Both the position numbers and the translations under genes were made by a program. The notes under the pieces were generated by a model, which saw only the letters and a list, made by a program, of their open reading frames with translations, ran no database searches and was not told where the DNA came from. A stretch of DNA of 20,000 nucleotides, from the IMG/VR virus record IMGVR_UViG_3300028805_000095. One strand, given 5' to 3'. This DNA comes from an uncultured virus (IMG/VR IMGVR_UViG_3300028805_000095) (taxonomy: Duplodnaviria > Heunggongvirae > Uroviricota > Caudoviricetes). How positions within the stretch are numbered: position 1 is the stretch's first letter; each line of letters begins with the position of its first letter. Below are positions 1 to 20,000 of the stretch, one piece after another.

Positions 1-454
1 CTCTATAATATCATGGCTAAACAGGCTAAGTATATTAATCGTAATAAACGTTCTATGGATAGAAATCTCAATCTAAAGAATCAACAGTTATTTAGATTTC
101 AATCTAAATATATAGAATTATATGATGAAGTAGTAGAGATTCTATCTGGAAAGAAAGGTGAACTAAGAACACTTGTATCTGGTAGATTTAACTTTAGTTC
201 TAGAAATGTTATTAAACAGAATCCGAACTTAAGAATCGACCAGGTCGAATTACCTTATGCGGAATTGGTAATTACACAAGAACAGAGAATCATTAATATA
301 TTGCATAGAACTTATAATATTACTTATCAAGAAGCATATAATCAATGGTTCAAAGCAGTAGGAGAAGTTGATCCAATAATTGTAAATATATTACAGGATA
401 TAATTAAATCCTCATGTAATGGAGAAGGATTACCTGTAATAATTAATAGAAATC
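1..454 (+). CDS. Phage multisubunit RNA polymerase beta' N-terminal (catalytic) subunit, first exon in window (open at left edge)
   Basis: Frame is open from base 1. KKGELRTLVSGRFNFSSRNVI..NPNLRIDQVELPY and PVIINRN match beta' motifs (K.G.FR..L.GKRVDFSGRSVI; LLNRAPTLH). Similarity stops at C454, where GTGCG begins. Confidence 0.9.
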
Positions 455-1049
455 GTGCGACTTGTTCAATATTGAAAAGATATTGCATAGATTATAAATC
501 TATGAACTGATAACTCGAGAAGTGGAATGATAGGGTAACGCCTTGAAACACTCCTCTAATACTCCGACATGCATTAAGGTGAAAACTTTTTTGTATGAAG
601 CTCGGTGAAGTCGGCATTTATATATGTCGGGAGTCTATAAAGTATCCATGGTGAGTATGATAATTTATCTGACGAACTTCTGAATTAAAGTCTTGTATTA
701 GTGTGGTCTAGTAAGAAGGGTTTCTATGAACGACCATAGTATATTATAGGTATATTCTAGCTAATATAATTCACAAGAAGCACCTAAAGATACATATGCA
801 AAGATAGAGTTATTGGAACAAGGAAAGGTAGATATGTTCATATCTGCTGAAAAGCGGTGATCGAAGCGTAGATAATTCTTGTAATGAGAATAGGAGTAAT
901 GGTCACCAGTCAATATATTGTATATAATAGTATCTCGAGAATTATTATATATCTTATATTGATGGCACGCCGTATGCGGTGAAAGTCGCATGTACGGTGT
1001 AGAGTGGGGGAAAAGATAGAGATAACTTCAAAGTCTTACCTATCACTAT
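455..1049 (+). mobile_element. Group II intron, ORF-less (595 nt; resembles bacterial class B / IIB)
   Basis: 5' GTGCGA at 455. 34-nt domain V ACGCCGTATGCGGTGAAAGTCGCATGTACGGTGT at 967-1000 (CGC triad, GAAA loop). Domain VI ends TTACCTATCACTAT at 1049. EBS1 GGTTTCT (719-725) is complementary to the exon end AGAAATC (448-454). Removal restores NRN-PTI. Confidence 0.92.
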
Positions 1050-1067: not shown

Positions 1068-2210
1068 ATGTTATTTGTCCGGCTGGATAGTGATATCCAG
1101 TAAAAACTACCGTATTAATTGCTGGAAACTCCTTAGAGCTTAAAAGTACTAGTAATAGTAATAATCTTTTAAGATTGGACAATCAGCAGCGAAGAAAAAG
1201 TATATTTAAATAAAATAAATAGGAGGTGATATTTCATGACTCCTATAAAATGTGCATATGAAAAGTTTGTTGACATAACAGATAAAATTGTCCCAAATGT
1301 TAAACCATATTATAAGATTAGTAATATGGGAAGAGTTTATAGTTTACATTCTGAAAAAATTATATCGAATGCTATAGATTCCAAAGGATATTATTATGTA
1401 CAGCTACAAACATATAATGGACCCAAAGCTTGTAGAATTCATAGACTTGTATTAACAGCATTTGATTATCATGAAGGTTGTGAGAATGAATTGGTGAATC
1501 ATGTCGATGGTGATAAATTAAATGATGATTTATTTAATCTAGAGTGGGCAACTTATTCCTCTAATCTTTGTCATGCTATTAGTCATGGATTAATTACATA
1601 TGATAATAGAGGTTCATTATCAAATGAACAAGTTGAAACAATATGTAATTATTTGATGGATTTAAATTATTCACCAACAATGATTGGTCAAATATTAAAT
1701 ATACCGCAAAATATGATATATTCTATATATTATAGAAGGGCATATTTGAGCATTTCGTCGAAATACACATTTCCTGATAGATCAAATATCAAATATAGTC
1801 GTATATTACCTATGAATAAAATAGAAGATATTTGCAAAGCATTTCAGGATACGGTAAACGAAAGACAATCAATGGGTGCAGATGATTATATTCGTTTATG
1901 TTTGAATATCGCAAATGTTGATATTAACAAATCAACAATTAGACTTGCTCAGAGAATATTATATAAATCAGTAAATACAGAAATATCAGATAAATATACT
2001 TTTTAACGTTCAACGACTATCAAAAGCATAGTATAGGAGAAAGACCTATATGAAGAAGCGAGTAGAGTAGAATACAAGTGTATTCGAAATGTACGGGGAC
2101 TCTATATTGGTAACAGATATAGAGTTGAAGATATAGTCTAGTATCCCATTATAATGATGGGGAAGTTCATAAGAGAACTGCACAGATTAACGACCTGTGT
2201 GAATGATACG
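1068..2210 (+). mobile_element. Group I intron (IA2-like) carrying an HNH homing endonuclease
   Basis: P1: exon UGGAU pairs with GUCCG (1077-1081), with U.G at the splice site. P AATTGCTGGAAA 1117-1128; Q AATCAGCAG 1181-1189; R GTTCAACGACTA 2008-2019; S AAGATATAGTC 2128-2138; P9.0 GTATC/GATAC then omega-G 2210. Confidence 0.92.
1236..2006 (+). CDS. Intron-encoded NUMOD4/HNH homing endonuclease
   Basis: YKISNMGRVYS (NUMOD4-like) and RIHRLVLTAF...VNHVDGDKLNDDLFNLEW (HNH_3-like). SD AGGAGGT at 1221-1227. The ORF lies in the P6 loop between Q and R. Confidence 0.9.
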   Translation: MTPIKCAYEKFVDITDKIVPNVKPYYKISNMGRVYSLHSEKIISNAIDSKGYYYVQLQTYNGPKACRIHRLVLTAFDYHEGCENELVNHVDGDKLNDDLFNLEWATYSSNLCHAISHGLITYDNRGSLSNEQVETICNYLMDLNYSPTMIGQILNIPQNMIYSIYYRRAYLSISSKYTFPDRSNIKYSRILPMNKIEDICKAFQDTVNERQSMGADDYIRLCLNIANVDINKSTIRLAQRILYKSVNTEISDKYTF

Positions 2211-5278: not shown

Positions 5279-6136
5279 TTATATTATTACCCAACCGATG
5301 GTTTCTCCACCTTTAACATCAGTAACTCTGATTCTATTGTTCAATATTCTAGCATTAGTAATATAAACTCTACCACTAATAATCTTTAAAGGAGTACTAG
5401 CAATACTAGTCTTATATACTTCTGCATCTTTTACATTGAAGAAACCACCTTCTTTATAAGTTTTCTTCTTTTTGATTCTTTCTTTCTTAGGCTTCTCTTC
5501 AACAAAGTCATCTTTAAGATAAGGATTAATAATCTCAGAAGTTTCGTTTAATGAAACATGTCCTGCGATTCCTTTCACTTCATGTTTATCTGATACTCTA
5601 GTCATAACTACATTATCTATCTTAGAATCATCATCTTTAATAACCCAGAAGAATGTATTATTAATGACAGATACATCAAGATGTGATTTAAACCATGAGC
5701 TAGTAGCCATAATACCACACTTTAAACCAAGAGTACCACATTCTTCCACGAATGTTTTAATAATCTTACTTCTTTCATCTACTGTAAGAGAATCTGATCT
5801 TCCTTTATGTGTCGATGAAGTCCATTCTGAACATACATAGATAGGTAATGATAATCTTACATTACTCTGATGAATTAATGATACAAAGAACTGTGCTTCT
5901 GCTTTAGCTTCTTCTTCTGTGATAGCTGCAGATACATAGTAACTACCAACACTAATTTTATTATTACTTAATTCTGTTATGTATGGGAAAAATCTAGGAT
6001 CAATAGAAGGAACACCATTCATGTTTCCTGAGAAACCTGCACGAACTATAACACCATCTATAGATTGTGCAATTGTAGAAAAGTTTACTATAGCATTCCA
6101 TTTACTAATGTCTAGTATATTCAATACTTTTTTCAT
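5279..6136 (-). CDS. GH25 muramidase (lysozyme)-like protein with a C-terminal putative binding domain; active site degenerate
   Basis: LDISKWN, VIVRAG, IDPRF, VGSYY, A..EAQFF follow the GH25 barrel pattern. SD AAGGAGG precedes ATG 6136. Confidence 0.8.
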   Translation of the reverse strand: MKKVLNILDISKWNAIVNFSTIAQSIDGVIVRAGFSGNMNGVPSIDPRFFPYITELSNNKISVGSYYVSAAITEEEAKAEAQFFVSLIHQSNVRLSLPIYVCSEWTSSTHKGRSDSLTVDERSKIIKTFVEECGTLGLKCGIMATSSWFKSHLDVSVINNTFFWVIKDDDSKIDNVVMTRVSDKHEVKGIAGHVSLNETSEIINPYLKDDFVEEKPKKERIKKKKTYKEGGFFNVKDAEVYKTSIASTPLKIISGRVYITNARILNNRIRVTDVKGGETIGWVII

Positions 6137-6264
6137 AATAACCTCCTTTAAAACAAACAAGTGGTATTTTACTAAAATGTTCGCATATGTAAAATCGTAG
6201 GATTTAACTTTATTATAATAAGTAATTAAGGCTTATAACCTATAGAAAGGAGCTTTATGCTATA

Positions 6265-7950: not shown

Positions 7951-8610
7951 ATGAGTAAGACAATTGAAGAATTAAGAGAACAGATTAATAGTATTACCAC
8001 TATTCTCGAAATCGCAGATATTTTATCTGTGTACCCTGTTAAAGAATCTAACTACAGAGCTAATATATCCATAGTTAGAGTAAATGGTTATGTAATCGGT
8101 TGGTCAACAGATGGCGAGATGATTTATGTGACCAGTGCTGGGGAAGAAATTCTCCATGAAACTTCAGATGAACTCATCAGTGAGAAAGCTAAGAATTTTA
8201 TCTTAGATAATATACTTAGATTAAATAACTCAGATGACTTCTATAAATATTATTTCAGAAGATATGGTTATGATACAGCAGATATAAATTCTGAAACTGT
8301 AAGAGAAGCATTAAACTTCTTTGAAAGTAATAGAGCTATTATTAATCATTTATTTATCAATGATGATTATCATTCTATTACACTCACAGGAAAGAGAGTA
8401 AGTAATCAAAATGAGTTGGAATACCGCATTGCTAACTGTGACAAGCAGGATATCTTAGATATCGTAGAGATAACTCATATTACCCCTGCTATTAATAAGA
8501 GAAACACATTTGATTATGAGAATCCTTATTATAATAGACCATTTACAAGTAGCCAAGATATCTTAGATTCTTATAACGAGTATAGAGATTCTCAGAGATA
8601 TGATGACTAG
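7951..8610 (+). CDS. Hypothetical protein (start 7951 preferred)
   Basis: SD GGAGGT precedes the in-frame ATG at 7951. Confidence 0.75.
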   Translation: MSKTIEELREQINSITTILEIADILSVYPVKESNYRANISIVRVNGYVIGWSTDGEMIYVTSAGEEILHETSDELISEKAKNFILDNILRLNNSDDFYKYYFRRYGYDTADINSETVREALNFFESNRAIINHLFINDDYHSITLTGKRVSNQNELEYRIANCDKQDILDIVEITHITPAINKRNTFDYENPYYNRPFTSSQDILDSYNEYRDSQRYDD

Positions 8611-8620
8611 GAGGTAGAAT

Positions 8621-8944
8621 ATGGCTGTTAAATACGAGTGTGACAAATGTCACAATTTATTTGATACTAAACTAACTCCTGTTGACTTAGGTCATCTTCA
8701 TTATCAGGTATGCAATGCTTGCTTACATGAATTCTCTCAATTAATGCTAAATCCTAAATTTAGTTTACATGCTAGAGTAGAATTAGTAAGAGAAGATGAT
8801 GGTACAGTAGCATTCGAAGGAGAGATATTTAGGCGAATTAGATTTCCTCAGAGTGGTGATCACTTTTATCATTATGATGTAATGCTAGATGATGGAGAGT
8901 TAATAACAGATATTCCTGAGAATGTATTAAGGATTAAAAATTAA
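8621..8944 (+). CDS. Zinc-ribbon-containing hypothetical protein
   Basis: CDKC...CNAC pair; SD AGGAGGT. Confidence 0.75.
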   Translation: MAVKYECDKCHNLFDTKLTPVDLGHLHYQVCNACLHEFSQLMLNPKFSLHARVELVREDDGTVAFEGEIFRRIRFPQSGDHFYHYDVMLDDGELITDIPENVLRIKN

Positions 8945-14874: not shown

Positions 14875-15594
14875 TTATTCTTCTTTATTATTTTTATTAA
14901 TATTCTTTGTTACATTTTTTATAGCATTAAATACTGCCAGATATCTATTAAATATCAAATCATTCTCTACATAAGATTTTAAATCATATAAATTGAGAAT
15001 ATAAAATGATATCATTCCTTTAATATCTAATAACAGACTAGAGATTTTCTTTATATGAGTAATATCTTCTTCACACTCTAATGAAATTTCATTAAATCTA
15101 TCTATAAGAGATACACAATTATTATATAAATCTACAAAATTATTTTTGAGTTCTCTAATCTTAATCTGTTGTTCTGCTAATGTGAGACTATCAAATAATT
15201 CTCTATCTTTAGCCTTTAATGCATCAGACTTCTGAGTATTTTCTTCATCACTATTAGAAGAATACATATCATCTTCAGACGGTTCTTTATTCTCATCATT
15301 ATTGTCATCATCATTTATGGTGAAATCATCGTTACCGTCTTCTTCATCTTGATTATCATCATTATTGTCATCATTCTGATTTTCGTCTTCTTGATTATCT
15401 TCTTGCTGATTATCATCGTTATTCTCTTCTTCTTGATTATTATCTTCTGTCTGATTATCATTAGCAGAATTATCTTCAGTATTATTATCTGCAGAGGTAC
15501 TATCATTAGTCTCTGCAGCATCAGCTGTATTATCAGCAGCAGTCTGATTATCATCATCTGCTTCAAATAAAAATAATCTTCTTTCAGAAATCAT
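14875..15594 (-). CDS. Acidic low-complexity protein (possible head/internal or scaffold-type protein)
   Basis: D/E/N-rich N-terminal ~120 aa plus a helical C-terminal domain; adjacent to the capsid gene; SD GAGGT. Confidence 0.7.
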   Translation of the reverse strand: MISERRLFLFEADDDNQTAADNTADAAETNDSTSADNNTEDNSANDNQTEDNNQEEENNDDNQQEDNQEDENQNDDNNDDNQDEEDGNDDFTINDDDNNDENKEPSEDDMYSSNSDEENTQKSDALKAKDRELFDSLTLAEQQIKIRELKNNFVDLYNNCVSLIDRFNEISLECEEDITHIKKISSLLLDIKGMISFYILNLYDLKSYVENDLIFNRYLAVFNAIKNVTKNINKNNKEE

Positions 15595-16122: not shown

Positions 16123-16213
16123 TTTTATTCTCCCTTTTCAATAACTTGTTGAATATTGAAATATAACCTCTTAACTCACTTGCTTATTTCAATAAGTGTT
16201 TGAGTTTTTGAAA

Positions 16214-17116
16214 TTATGAATCTGCAGCAACTTCAAAACAAGGTAAAATATAAATATTTCCTGTGTTATAAACATAATAGTTTTCTGCACCATTTGTTTC
16301 AATCATCGTTACACTATTTCCGCCATTACTTGTCAAATCTCTTGTCCACCAATTTCGTAATGTATCGCTTGTGTCCGTTTTCACTCTGTTTGCTTGTGTG
16401 GTAAAAATAGGGAATTGTGCAAGTGGATATGTTGGAGTTCCGCTGTTTACATATCCTGTTACCTCTGTTCGTGATGGTATCCATACTTTCGCCGTAAATG
16501 TTTTCCAACTTCCACTCCAAGACGAACTGTTATAAGTGGATATATACTGTTGTTCTTCTTGGCTTATGGCATTGTAAAATTGATTTGTTACTCCGTAAAT
16601 TGTAGAATCTGAATAAGCAATACCATAAGGACTTGTCGCAGTGTACCAAACTGATTGTTGCCAAACATTGTCGCTTACAAGGATAACATTATGCGCTGAA
16701 CAGTGGTTAATAGCACCAATCGACATTTTCCAAGTATTTCCACTAACTGTGATATTTACTTTATCGCCTATGGTTAAAGTATCATTTTCATTTCCAGCAT
16801 TTAATATAGATTTGATTCCTTTAAGTGTTGACTTGTCCAAAACATTTACAAAGTATGTCTGTCCGTAATCAACTGTCTTATAAACTCCACCAACTTCGGT
16901 AGCAACTCCACCAATATCTTGAACTGTGCAAATCTTATAATAGTCATAAGGTGGAACTGTAAACACTAAAGCCGTACCTACTGTTGCAACTTGCTTATTC
17001 CATACCTTATTACTATCTGTCATACTACGGACACGAATTGTATCTCCAACACTAAAGGTTGATGTATCACATATTATTCTGCCTTGTCCGTAATAGTATC
17101 CGTCTGCATATCCCAT
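16214..17116 (-). CDS. DUF6273-like (C-type lectin fold) putative tail/receptor-binding protein
   Basis: IGDKV, KVWIPSRTEV, FPIF, NWWTR...NG...ILPCF C-terminal pattern; SD AAAGGAG. Confidence 0.7.
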   Translation of the reverse strand: MGYADGYYYGQGRIICDTSTFSVGDTIRVRSMTDSNKVWNKQVATVGTALVFTVPPYDYYKICTVQDIGGVATEVGGVYKTVDYGQTYFVNVLDKSTLKGIKSILNAGNENDTLTIGDKVNITVSGNTWKMSIGAINHCSAHNVILVSDNVWQQSVWYTATSPYGIAYSDSTIYGVTNQFYNAISQEEQQYISTYNSSSWSGSWKTFTAKVWIPSRTEVTGYVNSGTPTYPLAQFPIFTTQANRVKTDTSDTLRNWWTRDLTSNGGNSVTMIETNGAENYYVYNTGNIYILPCFEVAADS

Positions 17117-17324
17117 TGTCTATTCTCCTTTATTAAATAACTTCGGTTATCTAATTTCCATTTACATTTAAGGATAATTAGATAACCATTAATATTCTAA
17201 TTATTATGGAAATATAAAATATAAACATCATAAGATGACAATTAATCAGGAGATTAATTAAAAGACATAATAATTAGAAAGGTTAACGTTACTGATATTG
17301 ATTCCTCAATATTATTAAGATGTG

Positions 17325-17353
17325 AATAGGGTGAGAATTTATCTCACCCTATT
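17325..17353 (-). terminator. Terminator hairpin
   Basis: AATAGGGTGAGA/TCTCACCCTATT stem just after the 17371 stop codon. Confidence 0.72.
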
Positions 17354-17370
17354 TAAATAAACATTTATAC

Positions 17371-19364
17371 TTAGAATTTTACATATGTTGTCTCATGTCC
17401 AGTAGGAATAGCAACATCACGAGTACTTTGAGATACACCATAATCTACATATTCTTCTGTACCAAACTTATCATAGAACTGAGGATTAGAATATGCAGCA
17501 GCAGATTCTTCTGTAGGGATCTCAGCTTCATAAACAAGATAATGTCCAGACATGGCTGATTTAAATACAGCTGGGTCAGTATAATTATCATCTTTAATAT
17601 TGATAGCTTTAGCTGTCAATGCTCCGGCAATCTCACCATTTAATAATTCCTGATATGTTTTTGCTACAGGTGTATATTTATCACATATAAAATTAGTATA
17701 ACTATAGACTGTACCTGTTGTCTTTTTATTAGGCAAATTAAGAGTATACATTACATTATATTCTGCATTTCTCATCCAATCTATTGTACCCATATCAATT
17801 ATTTCATAGTTTCTAGTAATAATTCCAGTACTCTCATAGATATCACCATCACAATATAACTTATTGGCACTATCTAATTTAAAGATACCCCTAATTTCTT
17901 TAGAAGAATCAAGAGCATAAGAATGTGATTCATAAGGTTCATAAGTAGCACTTGTAGATGCAGGTCTTATCATAGGTCTGAAAATAAGGTTGTCTGCCTT
18001 ATAATCTTTCTTGATTATTATGCTTAATCTCCACTTACCAGTATCTGTAACATTAATGGTTACTCCGTTTCCTGAATCATCATTAGAAGTAACTTCTAGA
18101 TCAGAAATTCTTAAATAATATGTAGAGCCACCACCACCTTCAGGGCATCCGTTAAGAATGTAACCTACAAAGGGGCAACTTTCCTGAGTTGTAGCATATA
18201 TGTTAAAAGAAGTATCAGCACTGGCTGTTCCGTTTGCGGTTACTGTTCCATCTGAATTAACAGTAAATACAACATCGTTTATAGTAGTACTAGTTGCCTG
18301 GTTATTAAATTGGTTCTTTCCAGTAAACTTGTGTTCAGATAATTTCACACTTTGTAAACTACCAGCATCATAAGCATAGTAATTATTAGGGAATAATTTA
18401 CGTACATAAGCAACACCACTACCAGGTGATGCTGTTTCAAGTCCATAAATATAGTTTGCTATAGTTGAACCGAATAAAAGTGTAAGGTCGATATACATTG
18501 CATTTTTAATATTTATTGTATTTTCACCATCAGTAATATTTGAATAAAATTGATAATTTATTGAAGATGTAGTTGCATTTAGTACATTTGTTATTTTAGT
18601 ATAAATATTAGTAGCAGGAAAATCATTTTTAAAATGAGTTCTCATTAGTTGTGTACTCTTATACTCAAAACTTACTAAATACTTATGATTAACTATTGTA
18701 TTTATCGATTGATAAATACCACCAAATTGTGCTTGCGCAACTATTGTTGCTTCATTATTATTGGCAGTAAAAGTAGTTGAAGCACCAACATTTACATTCC
18801 AATTACTTGTACTTGCAAAATTACCATTCTGTACCAACTGGTTCCAAGCAACAGTTCCACCTATTATCTTATCATAGTAATAGTTAGTTGCTCCAGAAAA
18901 TGCTAAAGCATTTCTCTTTGTATAGGGAGATTTATCAATTGTTAAGATTCCCCCCCCCCTGATACTGATTCGATGATAGAGCTTCCTATGAAACTAGTGG
19001 TCTTTGTTGTGGTTACACCATCTATTTCAACAGCTTCAGTAATACTACCATCAGCATTAAAAGTTACTGTCTTATCAAATCCTTCACCTTCGATACTAAT
19101 ACTACCATCATCATTAAATGTAGTAGTTTTAGGAATCAAATCAAAATTAACGTCATTAAACGCACTCTGTACACTAATTGAATTAACTCCAAGAACACTA
19201 TTATCAAATCCTACATCACTCGCAGGTATTCTACCATAATCATCAGGTGCATCGGTTCTTATCCAAAATTCAGGTTTTACTTCTAAGGCATCATATTGCG
19301 CTTGTGTTAGTTCAGGCATAGAATTAACACCAGCAACCATTTTGCCGTTGTAATAAAGTGCCAT
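17371..19364 (-). CDS. Tail fibre/receptor-binding protein, frameshifted at a G10 tract (18950-18959); about 664 aa if G11
   Basis: The N-terminal module (19364-18942) has tail-fibre motifs LTQAQYDAL and ASDVGFDN...VQSA. The second frame is open from the G tract through DKIIGGTVAWNQLVQNGNF to 17371 and lacks a convincing own ATG/SD. Confidence 0.78.
18950..18959 (-). repeat. Poly-G tract (G10 on coding strand)
   Basis: Ten consecutive C on the + strand in an AT-rich genome, located at the frame junction. Confidence 0.95.
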
Positions 19365-19464
19365 GTATAGACCCTCCTATAATTATTTTTATAGCATAAA
19401 TTTTATACGATTTTATATAATAAATAAAGTATTATAAAGATGTGAATAATATGAAAAAATAAAA

Positions 19465-19493
19465 AGTCTATGGAGCAAAACACTCCATAGACT
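19465..19493 (-). terminator. Rho-independent terminator
   Basis: AGTCTATGGAG/CTCCATAGACT stem followed by a T tract on the minus strand. Confidence 0.78.
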
Positions 19494-19515
19494 ATATAAT
19501 TTATTAAGAAGATTT

Positions 19516-20000
19516 TTAATTATCAATGTATATTTTTCTTACTCTTAATACAGGATTAGTATATGAACTTGCAGTTCGAGAGCCACTATATACATCAGAA
19601 TTACTCGTAACTGCGTACTCAGGAAATTCTTCAGATGTTAATCCCACCGCATATGGATATTGCCATCCTCCACTATTTATAGTACCTAAACCACATACAA
19701 CTCTTTTTGAAGATGCTGTTATATTGAATGTTTTTGTGATTATAGCTCCACTGCCATTTATAGAAATATCAAATATTAATCTTTTACCTTTATACTTAGA
19801 TAAATCCAATCCATCTAAGTAAATAGCATCTGAATATCCACCATTCAATCCCTTAAAACAAATACCATCACTTATTGAATGTGATTTAGTATAGTATGAA
19901 CCACCTGATGCACTGTACTTTATACCTACTTCAGATACACCATCTAAATATGTATCATTTTCGAAAATAACAGGATTAGAAGGAATATTCCCCCCCCCCC
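19516..20000 (-). CDS. C-terminal domain of a second putative tail fibre/receptor-binding protein (open at right edge)
   Basis: Frame is open from the poly-G tract: GGG-NIPSNPVIFENDTYLDG...LDLSKYKGKRLIFD...VRKIYIDN. The beta-rich DLSKY..L / .I..I pattern is typical of fibre tip domains. Confidence 0.65.
   Translation of the reverse strand, partial: GGGNIPSNPVIFENDTYLDGVSEVGIKYSASGGSYYTKSHSISDGICFKGLNGGYSDAIYLDGLDLSKYKGKRLIFDISINGSGAIITKTFNITASSKRVVCGLGTINSGGWQYPYAVGLTSEEFPEYAVTSNSDVYSGSRTASSYTNPVLRVRKIYIDN
19990..20000 (-). repeat. Poly-G tract (>=11 nt, truncated by window edge)
   Basis: At least 11 consecutive C on the + strand. Confidence 0.95.

Follow-up and report, generated by a model that had tools for sequence, protein, structure and literature searches.

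Results

Two poly-G runs in adjacent fibre-like genes

The 20,000-nt stretch of DNA analysed here (the window) comes from an uncultured tailed phage (IMG/VR record IMGVR_UViG_3300028805_000095; Caudoviricetes), and two adjacent fibre-like genes within it, termed gene A and gene B and both read from the minus strand, each contain a long uninterrupted run of G. We consider it somewhat probable that these runs are hypermutable poly-G contingency tracts that toggle receptor-binding modules in the two genes. At G10, gene B would yield a complete short fibre made up of an N-terminal attachment domain and beta-hairpin repeats; polymerase slippage that added one G or removed two would remove the stop codon of gene B, and the shifted gene would continue through a Gly linker into a module of 525 amino acids (aa), the jelly roll of which would form part of a receptor-binding tip. 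Gene A would be ON at G12 and would be turned off by a change of one G, and the phage population would then hold virions with differing fibre sets. Variation of run length in this phage, the location of the products in the virion, and their binding to a host are steps that we infer.

The run in gene B is a G10 on the coding minus strand (C10 on the plus strand), and the second run, seen as C11 on the plus strand, is a poly-G run of the minus strand in gene A (Table 1). Only three G/C runs of five or more occur in the window, the third being a G5 (1006-1010). An earlier reading of the window, made from the letters alone (the sequence-only reading), had named the two tracts as the sole G/C runs of such length, and this stands, the next longest being 5; it had also remarked that both tracts are followed by AAT, which was found directly 3' of each run on the coding strand. 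The window has a G+C content of 31.5%, and 0.0004 G/C runs of 10 or more are expected in it under a model of independent and identically distributed bases. Outside the runs GGG was used for 4 of 222 Gly codons (1.8%; 22 open reading frames [ORFs] or segments), and a stretch of four Gly within the downstream module of gene B (the C-module) is written GGT GGT GGT GGC (18128-18139), not as a homopolymer; a Gly linker therefore needs no G run. Uninterrupted G/C homopolymers of about 8 or more are present within the coding region at both sites (G10, and at least G11, or G12 as judged by the protein P0252 described below). Because the runs are far beyond chance expectation and go against the Gly codon bias, they look selected.

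The short product of gene B

In the G10 state gene B is an ORF of 140 aa (19364..18942, minus strand) that ends ...IIESVS-GGG-ES-stop, with its ATG at 19364-19362 and a GGAGGG ribosome-binding site (19372-19377) 7 nt upstream. With one G more or two fewer, a frame is entered that stays open from shortly before the run to a stop at 17371-17373; its 525 codons read GGGILTIDKSPY...GGTVAWNQL...YVKF (written at length: GGGILTIDKSPYTKRNALAFSGATNYYYDKIIGGTVAWNQLVQNGNF...). The length of the run decides the product, G10 giving 140 aa and G8 or G11 giving a fusion of about 664 aa. When coordinates and frames were read again, the G10 was found between the 140-aa ORF and the out-of-frame 525-codon frame as the sequence-only reading had placed it, and translation of the frames bore out its claim that G11 or G8 joins both into one protein of about 664 aa. 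Gene callers split genes of this kind, and public records carry the products of gene B as two proteins (140 aa and 488 aa); in metagenomic phages, systematic errors of annotation at homopolymers may therefore affect host-range modules.

The 140-aa product matched a tail fibre family in PHROGs (phrog_9525, E 1.3e-5), at the C-terminal end of the profile. An exhaustive HMMER search with this product among 1.84 billion representatives gave 148 matches including itself, and the 147 others were re-scored locally. The 57-residue N-domain (MALY..LT.AQYNAL.VKPEFWIRTDAP...) was N-terminal in 103 of the 147, followed by unrelated C-terminal domains; these 103 proteins are 62-542 aa in length (median 165). 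Repeat-domain matches that reached query residue 125 or beyond numbered 31, and 30 of them end no more than 8 aa from their own C-terminus, the typical ending being ...I.E.(V/I)S-stop. The N-domain and the repeat domain were found together in none of the 147 re-scored matches. Since the repeat-domain proteins end at the same point, the ESVS at which the 140-aa product ends is the normal C-terminus of the family, and beyond it the G run contributes five residues and a stop. The sequence-only reading had taken the OFF product for an anchor-only stub; this description had to be given up, 30 of 31 repeat-domain relatives ending where the 140-aa product ends, and judged by these alignments the product is a complete, family-typical small protein.

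The AlphaFold2 (AF2) model of the 140-aa protein had a predicted local distance difference test score (pLDDT) of 85, and a Foldseek search of the N-module model against the PDB gave 0 matches at E<=1e-3. Lipid-binding beta-barrels, which made up the top Foldseek rows, were considered as structural kin of the N-module and were set aside as meaningless at E>0.2. In locus L001 an N-domain relative is preceded by a tail fibre protein of 753 aa and an unassigned ORF, with lysis genes after it; in locus L002 a relative follows a tape measure protein, Dit, a collagen-bearing minor tail or fibre protein and one unassigned ORF, and precedes holin and endolysin genes. Both relatives thus stand at the distal end of siphophage tail modules. 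Receptor-binding proteins of Gram-positive siphophages (lactococcal type) are modular and small, and combine an N-terminal domain that is conserved and serves attachment with a head that varies. The present family is like them in having a 57-aa N-domain joined to unrelated C-terminal domains in 103 relatives, and in its place downstream of tail tip genes in L001 and L002; it is unlike them in that no match of the N-module to a solved receptor-binding protein was found in structure (0 in the PDB at E<=1e-3) or sequence.

A side observation concerns L002, a siphophage-like contig of 54 kb. At 8001-8913 its 153-aa N-domain member is followed directly by an ORF of 156 aa that has the post-domain motif (..DVEYSTGVSVKDKID..) without the N-domain; this ORF is perhaps a tandem paralogue, perhaps a second tip cassette.

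The possible 525-codon extension of gene B

A search for homologues of the C-module among 5.8 billion proteins gave 99 matches. The junction motif, PYxFR followed after about 15 residues by I(V/I)GGTVAWNQLV, was present in 50 of these, always at residue 54-852 of one ORF and preceded by N-terminal parts that vary among the 50 homologues; in 48 others no such motif occurs, and P0004, the product called in the window itself, was left out of the count. P0004 was the sole match that starts inside the junction motif. The first ATG, GTG or TTG of the C-module frame is a TTG at 18837, within the conserved GGTVAWNQLV. Judged from these proteins, the C-module cannot start independently. In the alignment its homology begins at DKSPY, 4 residues past the run, and the G run therefore sits at a module boundary on both sides, with the ESVS end upstream and the DKSPY start downstream. 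The 525-codon frame is without an internal stop despite the AT-rich genome, and a frame so intact indicates that the C-module is either under selection or very recently separated.

The AF2 model of the C-module was built with 35 sequences and had a pLDDT of 81. When its first domain was compared with the PDB using Foldseek, 29 matches at E<=1e-3 were to carbohydrate-binding modules (CBMs); the comparison with the CBM4 structure 1gui gave a template modelling (TM) score of 0.60 by target length, with a root-mean-square deviation of 3.7 over 155 columns. The predicted first domain thus matches the fold of the CBM4/9/16/22/29-type beta-sandwich, and on this model the C-module looks like a receptor-binding tip, putatively carbohydrate-binding. 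Pfam and PHROGs gave no family at E<=0.01 for the C-module (P0003). Using tblastn, the fused protein gave three weak partial matches only (17-23% coverage) among 50,697 phage records, and its use as a query for related loci in viral contigs gave none.

Gene A

Another assembly of this phage, 259,257 nt in length, contains gene A as an ORF of 170 aa that starts MAIGIIRNIGGGGNIPSNP... and its product, P0252, reads ...RNIGGGGNIPSNP across the run. Four Gly codons stand between Ile and Asn; together with the 11 G's that the window shows, they set the run at exactly G12. It lies in frame at codons 10-13, 9 codons past the ATG. Such a 5'-proximal run is the classical arrangement in contingency genes, and it does not form a linker in front of a C-terminal domain. 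The sequence-only reading had described gene A as a long gene with the tract directly before its C-terminal domain, and the 170-aa ORF with its run near the 5' end does not bear this out. In bacterial contingency loci, poly-G/C tracts lie near the 5' end of genes for surface structures (Campylobacter, Neisseria, Haemophilus). The G12 of gene A at codons 10-13 is like the tracts of such ON/OFF loci, and differs in being in a phage.

The only recorded relative of the gene A body is P0250 (166 aa, 92% identical), which starts MELFVTSGGNIPSNP and reads SGG at the site of the run, where its run is shorter or interrupted; the leaders upstream of the run are unrelated (MELFVTS in P0250 vs MAIGIIRNI in gene A). 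No match for gene A was found in Pfam or PHROGs, a search for its domain within longer proteins gave none, and the exact 30-mer of 19960-19989 had 0 matches in the viral and metagenome contig sets. The possibility that a 57-aa N-domain lies upstream of the gene A run was considered and disfavoured, the two relatives having an in-frame ATG 7-9 codons upstream, as read from the proteins. The second run was also considered as an artefact of dark-cycle poly-G reads; this was rejected on its presumed orientation and because an independent product reads through it. As to the claim that each gene has its own terminator, one was called after gene A (19493-19465), and the hairpin after the long gene (17350-17328), which is without a T run, was not called.

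Gly-run endings among relatives of the short product

Four of the 147 matches re-scored in the search with the short product end soon after a Gly run, three of them at the module junction. Those three are P0137 (69 aa, ending ...SDVSFTSGGGYLPLMYRML), P0150 (62 aa, ending ...DDIEYGGGGYLLKIK) and P0230 (95 aa), which ends ...NVSGGEE and so mirrors ESVS-GGG-ES. P0253 (60 aa) belongs to the 90% cluster of P0150; it is identical to P0150 up to the run and then reads VICKR. The homopolymers of all these proteins are deduced from peptides and not from DNA. By enumeration the tails of P0150 and P0253 fit one DNA in two frames with one mismatch, and at least two run lengths of that gene are therefore present in public assemblies. 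The third frame of P0137 fits the motif that follows the N-domain in the family (..ATNVQDA..) at 8 of 8 positions, as do 5 of 2000 shuffled tails. P0230 and P0255 (both 95 aa, on Logan contigs 3720 and 10096 nt long) both end ...NVSGGEE-stop, and these may be further G runs at a natural C-terminus, as judged from the peptides.

Run length in public assemblies

Eleven sequencing runs from 7 studies share words with the window, and two of these (X1 and X2), both from one sheep-gut sample, hold it at full length, with a depth of about 9-10 in each. That sample is possibly the source of the window, and X1 and X2 are not independent of it. The Logan data are assembled contigs, in which rare variants would not show. 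At the second run the Logan contigs break (X2 at 19986, X1 at 20001).

Several results weigh against phase variation by these runs. In the Logan contigs that span the first run (X1, 17054-19279; X2, 17054-19986) it is a G10, and they show 0 differences and 0 gaps; JGI, ENA and Logan records contain the 140-aa product letter for letter, and this product requires a G10; and the fused protein of about 664 aa is absent among the 99 C-module matches. The phage was present at full length in one sample only, in X3 and X4 the related contigs either stop short of the first run or diverge ahead of it, and an Illumina length error at a G10-G11 run is possible. Of 6 positions in the deduced ON frame of P0150, only 4 agree with the family motif, a score that 1983 of 2000 shuffles also attained and that is not significant. 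A search with the N-domain alignment gave 2 viral and 6 metagenome loci, and G/C runs of 6 or more occur in none of these 8 fetched loci (6 distinct contigs in all); the poly-G device is therefore not general in the family. The same alignment gave no loci among genome contigs and so no lead to a host. Gomez, Barrick and Waters (bioRxiv 10.1101/2025.10.21.683753) report an under-representation of repeats of 6 or more in the tail-fibre genes of coliphages. The phase-variable switch proposed in the sequence-only reading is thus upheld in its frames, its module boundary, the codon bias and the lack of an own start for the C-module, but not as to length heterogeneity, all assemblies of this phage being G10.

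An explanation that requires no switch is that the true run is a G11 that was miscounted, in which case gene B would be an ordinary gene for 664 aa, or that a recent inactivating slip has left a young pseudogene; we think this unlikely. Long G runs are generally known to be error-prone on short-read platforms, the depth is about 9-10 as given above, and all the assemblies are perhaps from one sample; moreover, the related phage described below lacks the C-module, so that the module is dispensable. However, the run was G10 in two sequencing runs assembled separately and in the ENA and JGI assemblies, the 525-codon frame holds no stop, and the poly-C at the 3' end of the plus strand would presumably be in the wrong orientation for dark-cycle poly-G read tails. 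Even a G11 would be a run set against 1.8% GGG usage, beside a run of 12, and would still be hypermutable.

The uniform G10 could instead be a stable site of programmed recoding, by a -1 slip of the ribosome on three rare GGG codons or by slippage of RNA polymerase, and each infection would then produce much short fibre and little of a long, CBM-bearing fibre. This seems to us improbable. G10 as the sole state in every assembly is in line with it, as is a short product that is complete and family-typical, which would be expected if both forms were wanted; the homopolymer permits perfect re-pairing in the -1 frame, which is that of the C-module, and the rarity of GGG (4 of 222 Gly codons) favours pausing. 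Yet there is no downstream stimulatory RNA structure (for the 136 nt around the run z was -1.33, a fold equalled by 21 of 200 shuffles), the gene A run, in frame 9 codons past the start, is left unexplained, the difference in frame between P0150 and P0253 is one of DNA, and known sites of transcriptional slippage are mostly A/T runs. Programmed frameshifts add C-terminal domains to structural proteins of phages (lambda G/GT, and the capsid and tail proteins of some phages of Gram-positive hosts, namely SPP1 and Listeria phage). Gene B is like these in pairing a short complete product with a longer one that has an added, predicted binding domain; these programmed frameshifts differ in that they use short slippery heptamers at fixed ratios with no change of the DNA, whereas here there is a 10-nt homopolymer with no downstream structure. 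The readings weighed here are not mutually exclusive, since any G10 slips somewhat at the levels of DNA, RNA and ribosome.

Variation of the locus among related phages

In a related phage, more abundant in the same sample, 19000 is joined to 17160 via 12 other letters (depth 26.8 in X2 and 11.8 in X3), and this allele is devoid of both the G run and the C-module. A further contig of X3 differs from 19024 on. In another contig, from a related and more abundant phage of the same sample, 1739 other letters replace 16136-17027. In the manner of host-recognition loci, the region 16136-19024 is a hotspot of replacement. A joint from 17083 to 19975 in X3 was ignored, its shorter side being 25 letters only, and gaps in the cover of X3 and X4, like small shares of words, were not taken as evidence of absence or of habitat.

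Two side observations belong to this region. The small fibre gene of the allele that joins 19000 to 17160 would stop about 10 residues early, and the gene at 16214-17116 (DUF6273, E 3.9e-10), beside the fibre genes, is also a swappable cassette.

Replacement of this kind raises the question whether the G runs are recombination joints, or scars of module exchange that link swappable tips to anchors, with frame switching incidental; we give this very little credence. The hotspot at 16136-19024, the unrelated leader upstream of the gene A run in the 92%-identical P0250, and the joining of the N-domain to wholly different C-terminal domains in 103 proteins all fit it. However, the break points of relatives in gene B (19000 and 19024) lie 41-65 nt upstream of the run, relatives with exchanged C-terminal domains have no G runs, and it is generally known that no known recombinase needs a homopolymer. 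For gene B, then, the suggestion in the sequence-only reading that the tracts serve as points of recombination was not borne out, the relatives diverging at 19000 and 19024 and not at the run.

The phage and other genes of the window

The same proteins occur on a contig of 259,257 nt, which makes this a jumbo phage (genome >200 kb), and an ORF at 1-510 (plus strand) is an RNA polymerase beta'-like fragment (phrog_2987, E 6e-20); the assignment to the jumbo phages in the sequence-only reading is borne out by both. That reading had spoken of AR9-like phages, but a specific kinship to AR9/PBS1 was not found: when the head protein was compared by tblastn with the 50,697 phage records, the only cultured match was Yersinia phage phiR1-37 (2 records, 22% identity). 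The DNA of 17000-20000 had no match in these records. Promoter-like sites numbered 25 against 23.4 expected, which is uninformative.

Other genes of the window are noted here as side observations. A NUMOD4/HNH homing-endonuclease-like ORF (1236-2006, plus strand; phrog_59, E 9e-29) follows the RNA polymerase fragment that ends at 510, which suggests that the RNA polymerase gene of the phage is split or interrupted by an intron. At 14875-15594 (minus strand) lies a 239-aa protein with no family match, the N-terminal half of which is very acidic, of low complexity and rich in Asp, Glu and Asn; in gene order it stands just upstream of the head protein (584 aa; phrog_20655, E 3.8e-20), and it is possibly scaffold-like. 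An endolysin of the GH25 muramidase type (5279-6160, minus strand; PF01183, E 5e-11) is on the strand opposite to its neighbours and carries about 110 further aa, of unknown family, at its C-terminus.

Table 1. Coordinates of the features of genes A and B within the window.
Feature	Position	Strand	Remarks
Hairpin AGGGTGAGA..TCTCACCCT	17328..17350	-	just 3' of the C-module stop; without T run; no call in the terminator scan
C-module, 525 codons + stop	17371..18949	-	frame of G11/G8; 99 homologues; junction motif internal in 50 of 50
CBM4/16/29-like jelly roll (predicted)	18478..18870 (approx.)	-	about residues 30-160 of P0003; AF2 and Foldseek; limits estimated from alignment lengths and pLDDT blocks
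Out-of-frame tail of the G10 state	18942..18949	-	(G)AA TCT TAA, read E S stop
G10 homopolymer	18950..18959	-	read GGG GGG GGG G in the upstream frame; unchanged in the X1 and X2 Logan contigs
Small fibre protein, residues 1-135	18960..19364	-	N-domain (residues 1-57) and three TTFNADGSITE-like beta-hairpin repeats (residues 73-135), ending ...IIESVS
Intrinsic-terminator-like hairpin and T run	19465..19493	-	13-bp stem; after gene A; from terminator scan
Gene A body, 157 codons + stop	19516..19989	-	downstream of the run; no family match
Second homopolymer	19990..20000	-	11 G visible; G12 by the 170-aa product of the other assembly

Discussion

The closest known parallel to the two runs is in Campylobacter phages, the receptor-binding genes of which carry hypermutable polyG tracts (Sorensen et al. 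2021; as related in PMC10579305 and PMC12823448). As far as those accounts go, the likeness lies in an uninterrupted G run within a host-recognition gene, in the shift of frame that a change of its length brings about, and in the presence of more than one such gene per genome. The difference is that the present case is a candidate switch, read from sequence alone, in an uncultured jumbo phage of the ruminant gut with 31% GC and no shown sequence kinship to those phages; and the gene B run, again as compared with what those accounts give, lies at a natural C-terminus and would toggle a 525-aa extension, not the whole protein.

Contingency loci of another kind have been described in coliphages T2 and T4 and elsewhere, where slippage in homopolymers gives reversible frameshifts and bet-hedging (Gomez, Barrick and Waters, bioRxiv 10.1101/2025.10.21.683753). 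The resemblance is that short homopolymers in phage genes lead to reversible frameshifts by polymerase slippage, as is proposed here; the coliphage repeats are mostly of 6 or more bases, are spread over many gene classes and stand at 0.77x in tail fibres, whereas here the runs are of 10 and 12 and are in fibre-like genes only. No report of such tracts in jumbo phages or ruminant-gut phages was found in the literature covered, which was a limited library. As far as our searches show, Campylobacter phages are the only ones with documented poly-G phase variation of receptor-binding proteins, and contingency loci in general are on record for a few coliphages and vibriophages; what is new here would then be the phage lineage, a run at a natural protein end that adds a module, and recurrence in a family of small fibres.

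A broader view, which we put forward as rather doubtful, is that the G runs are couplers at protein ends in a lineage of gut jumbo phages: slippage on the three rare GGG codons, whether of DNA, RNA or ribosome, would add a 525-aa lectin tip to a minority of the short fibre, each burst would hold mixed fibre sets, and the device would recur where the N-domain ends in other members of the family, in P0137, in P0150/P0253 and perhaps in P0230. If this were true, homopolymer-coupled addition of modules would be a general host-range strategy that reaches beyond Campylobacter phages.

If the toggling of receptor-binding modules by contingency tracts, the reading that we favour, is real, it would extend the poly-G device to an uncultured jumbo phage of the ruminant gut. 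It would also do so in a different layout, with a large lectin-like tip being added to or removed from a complete fibre, beside a gene that has a classical 5' tract.

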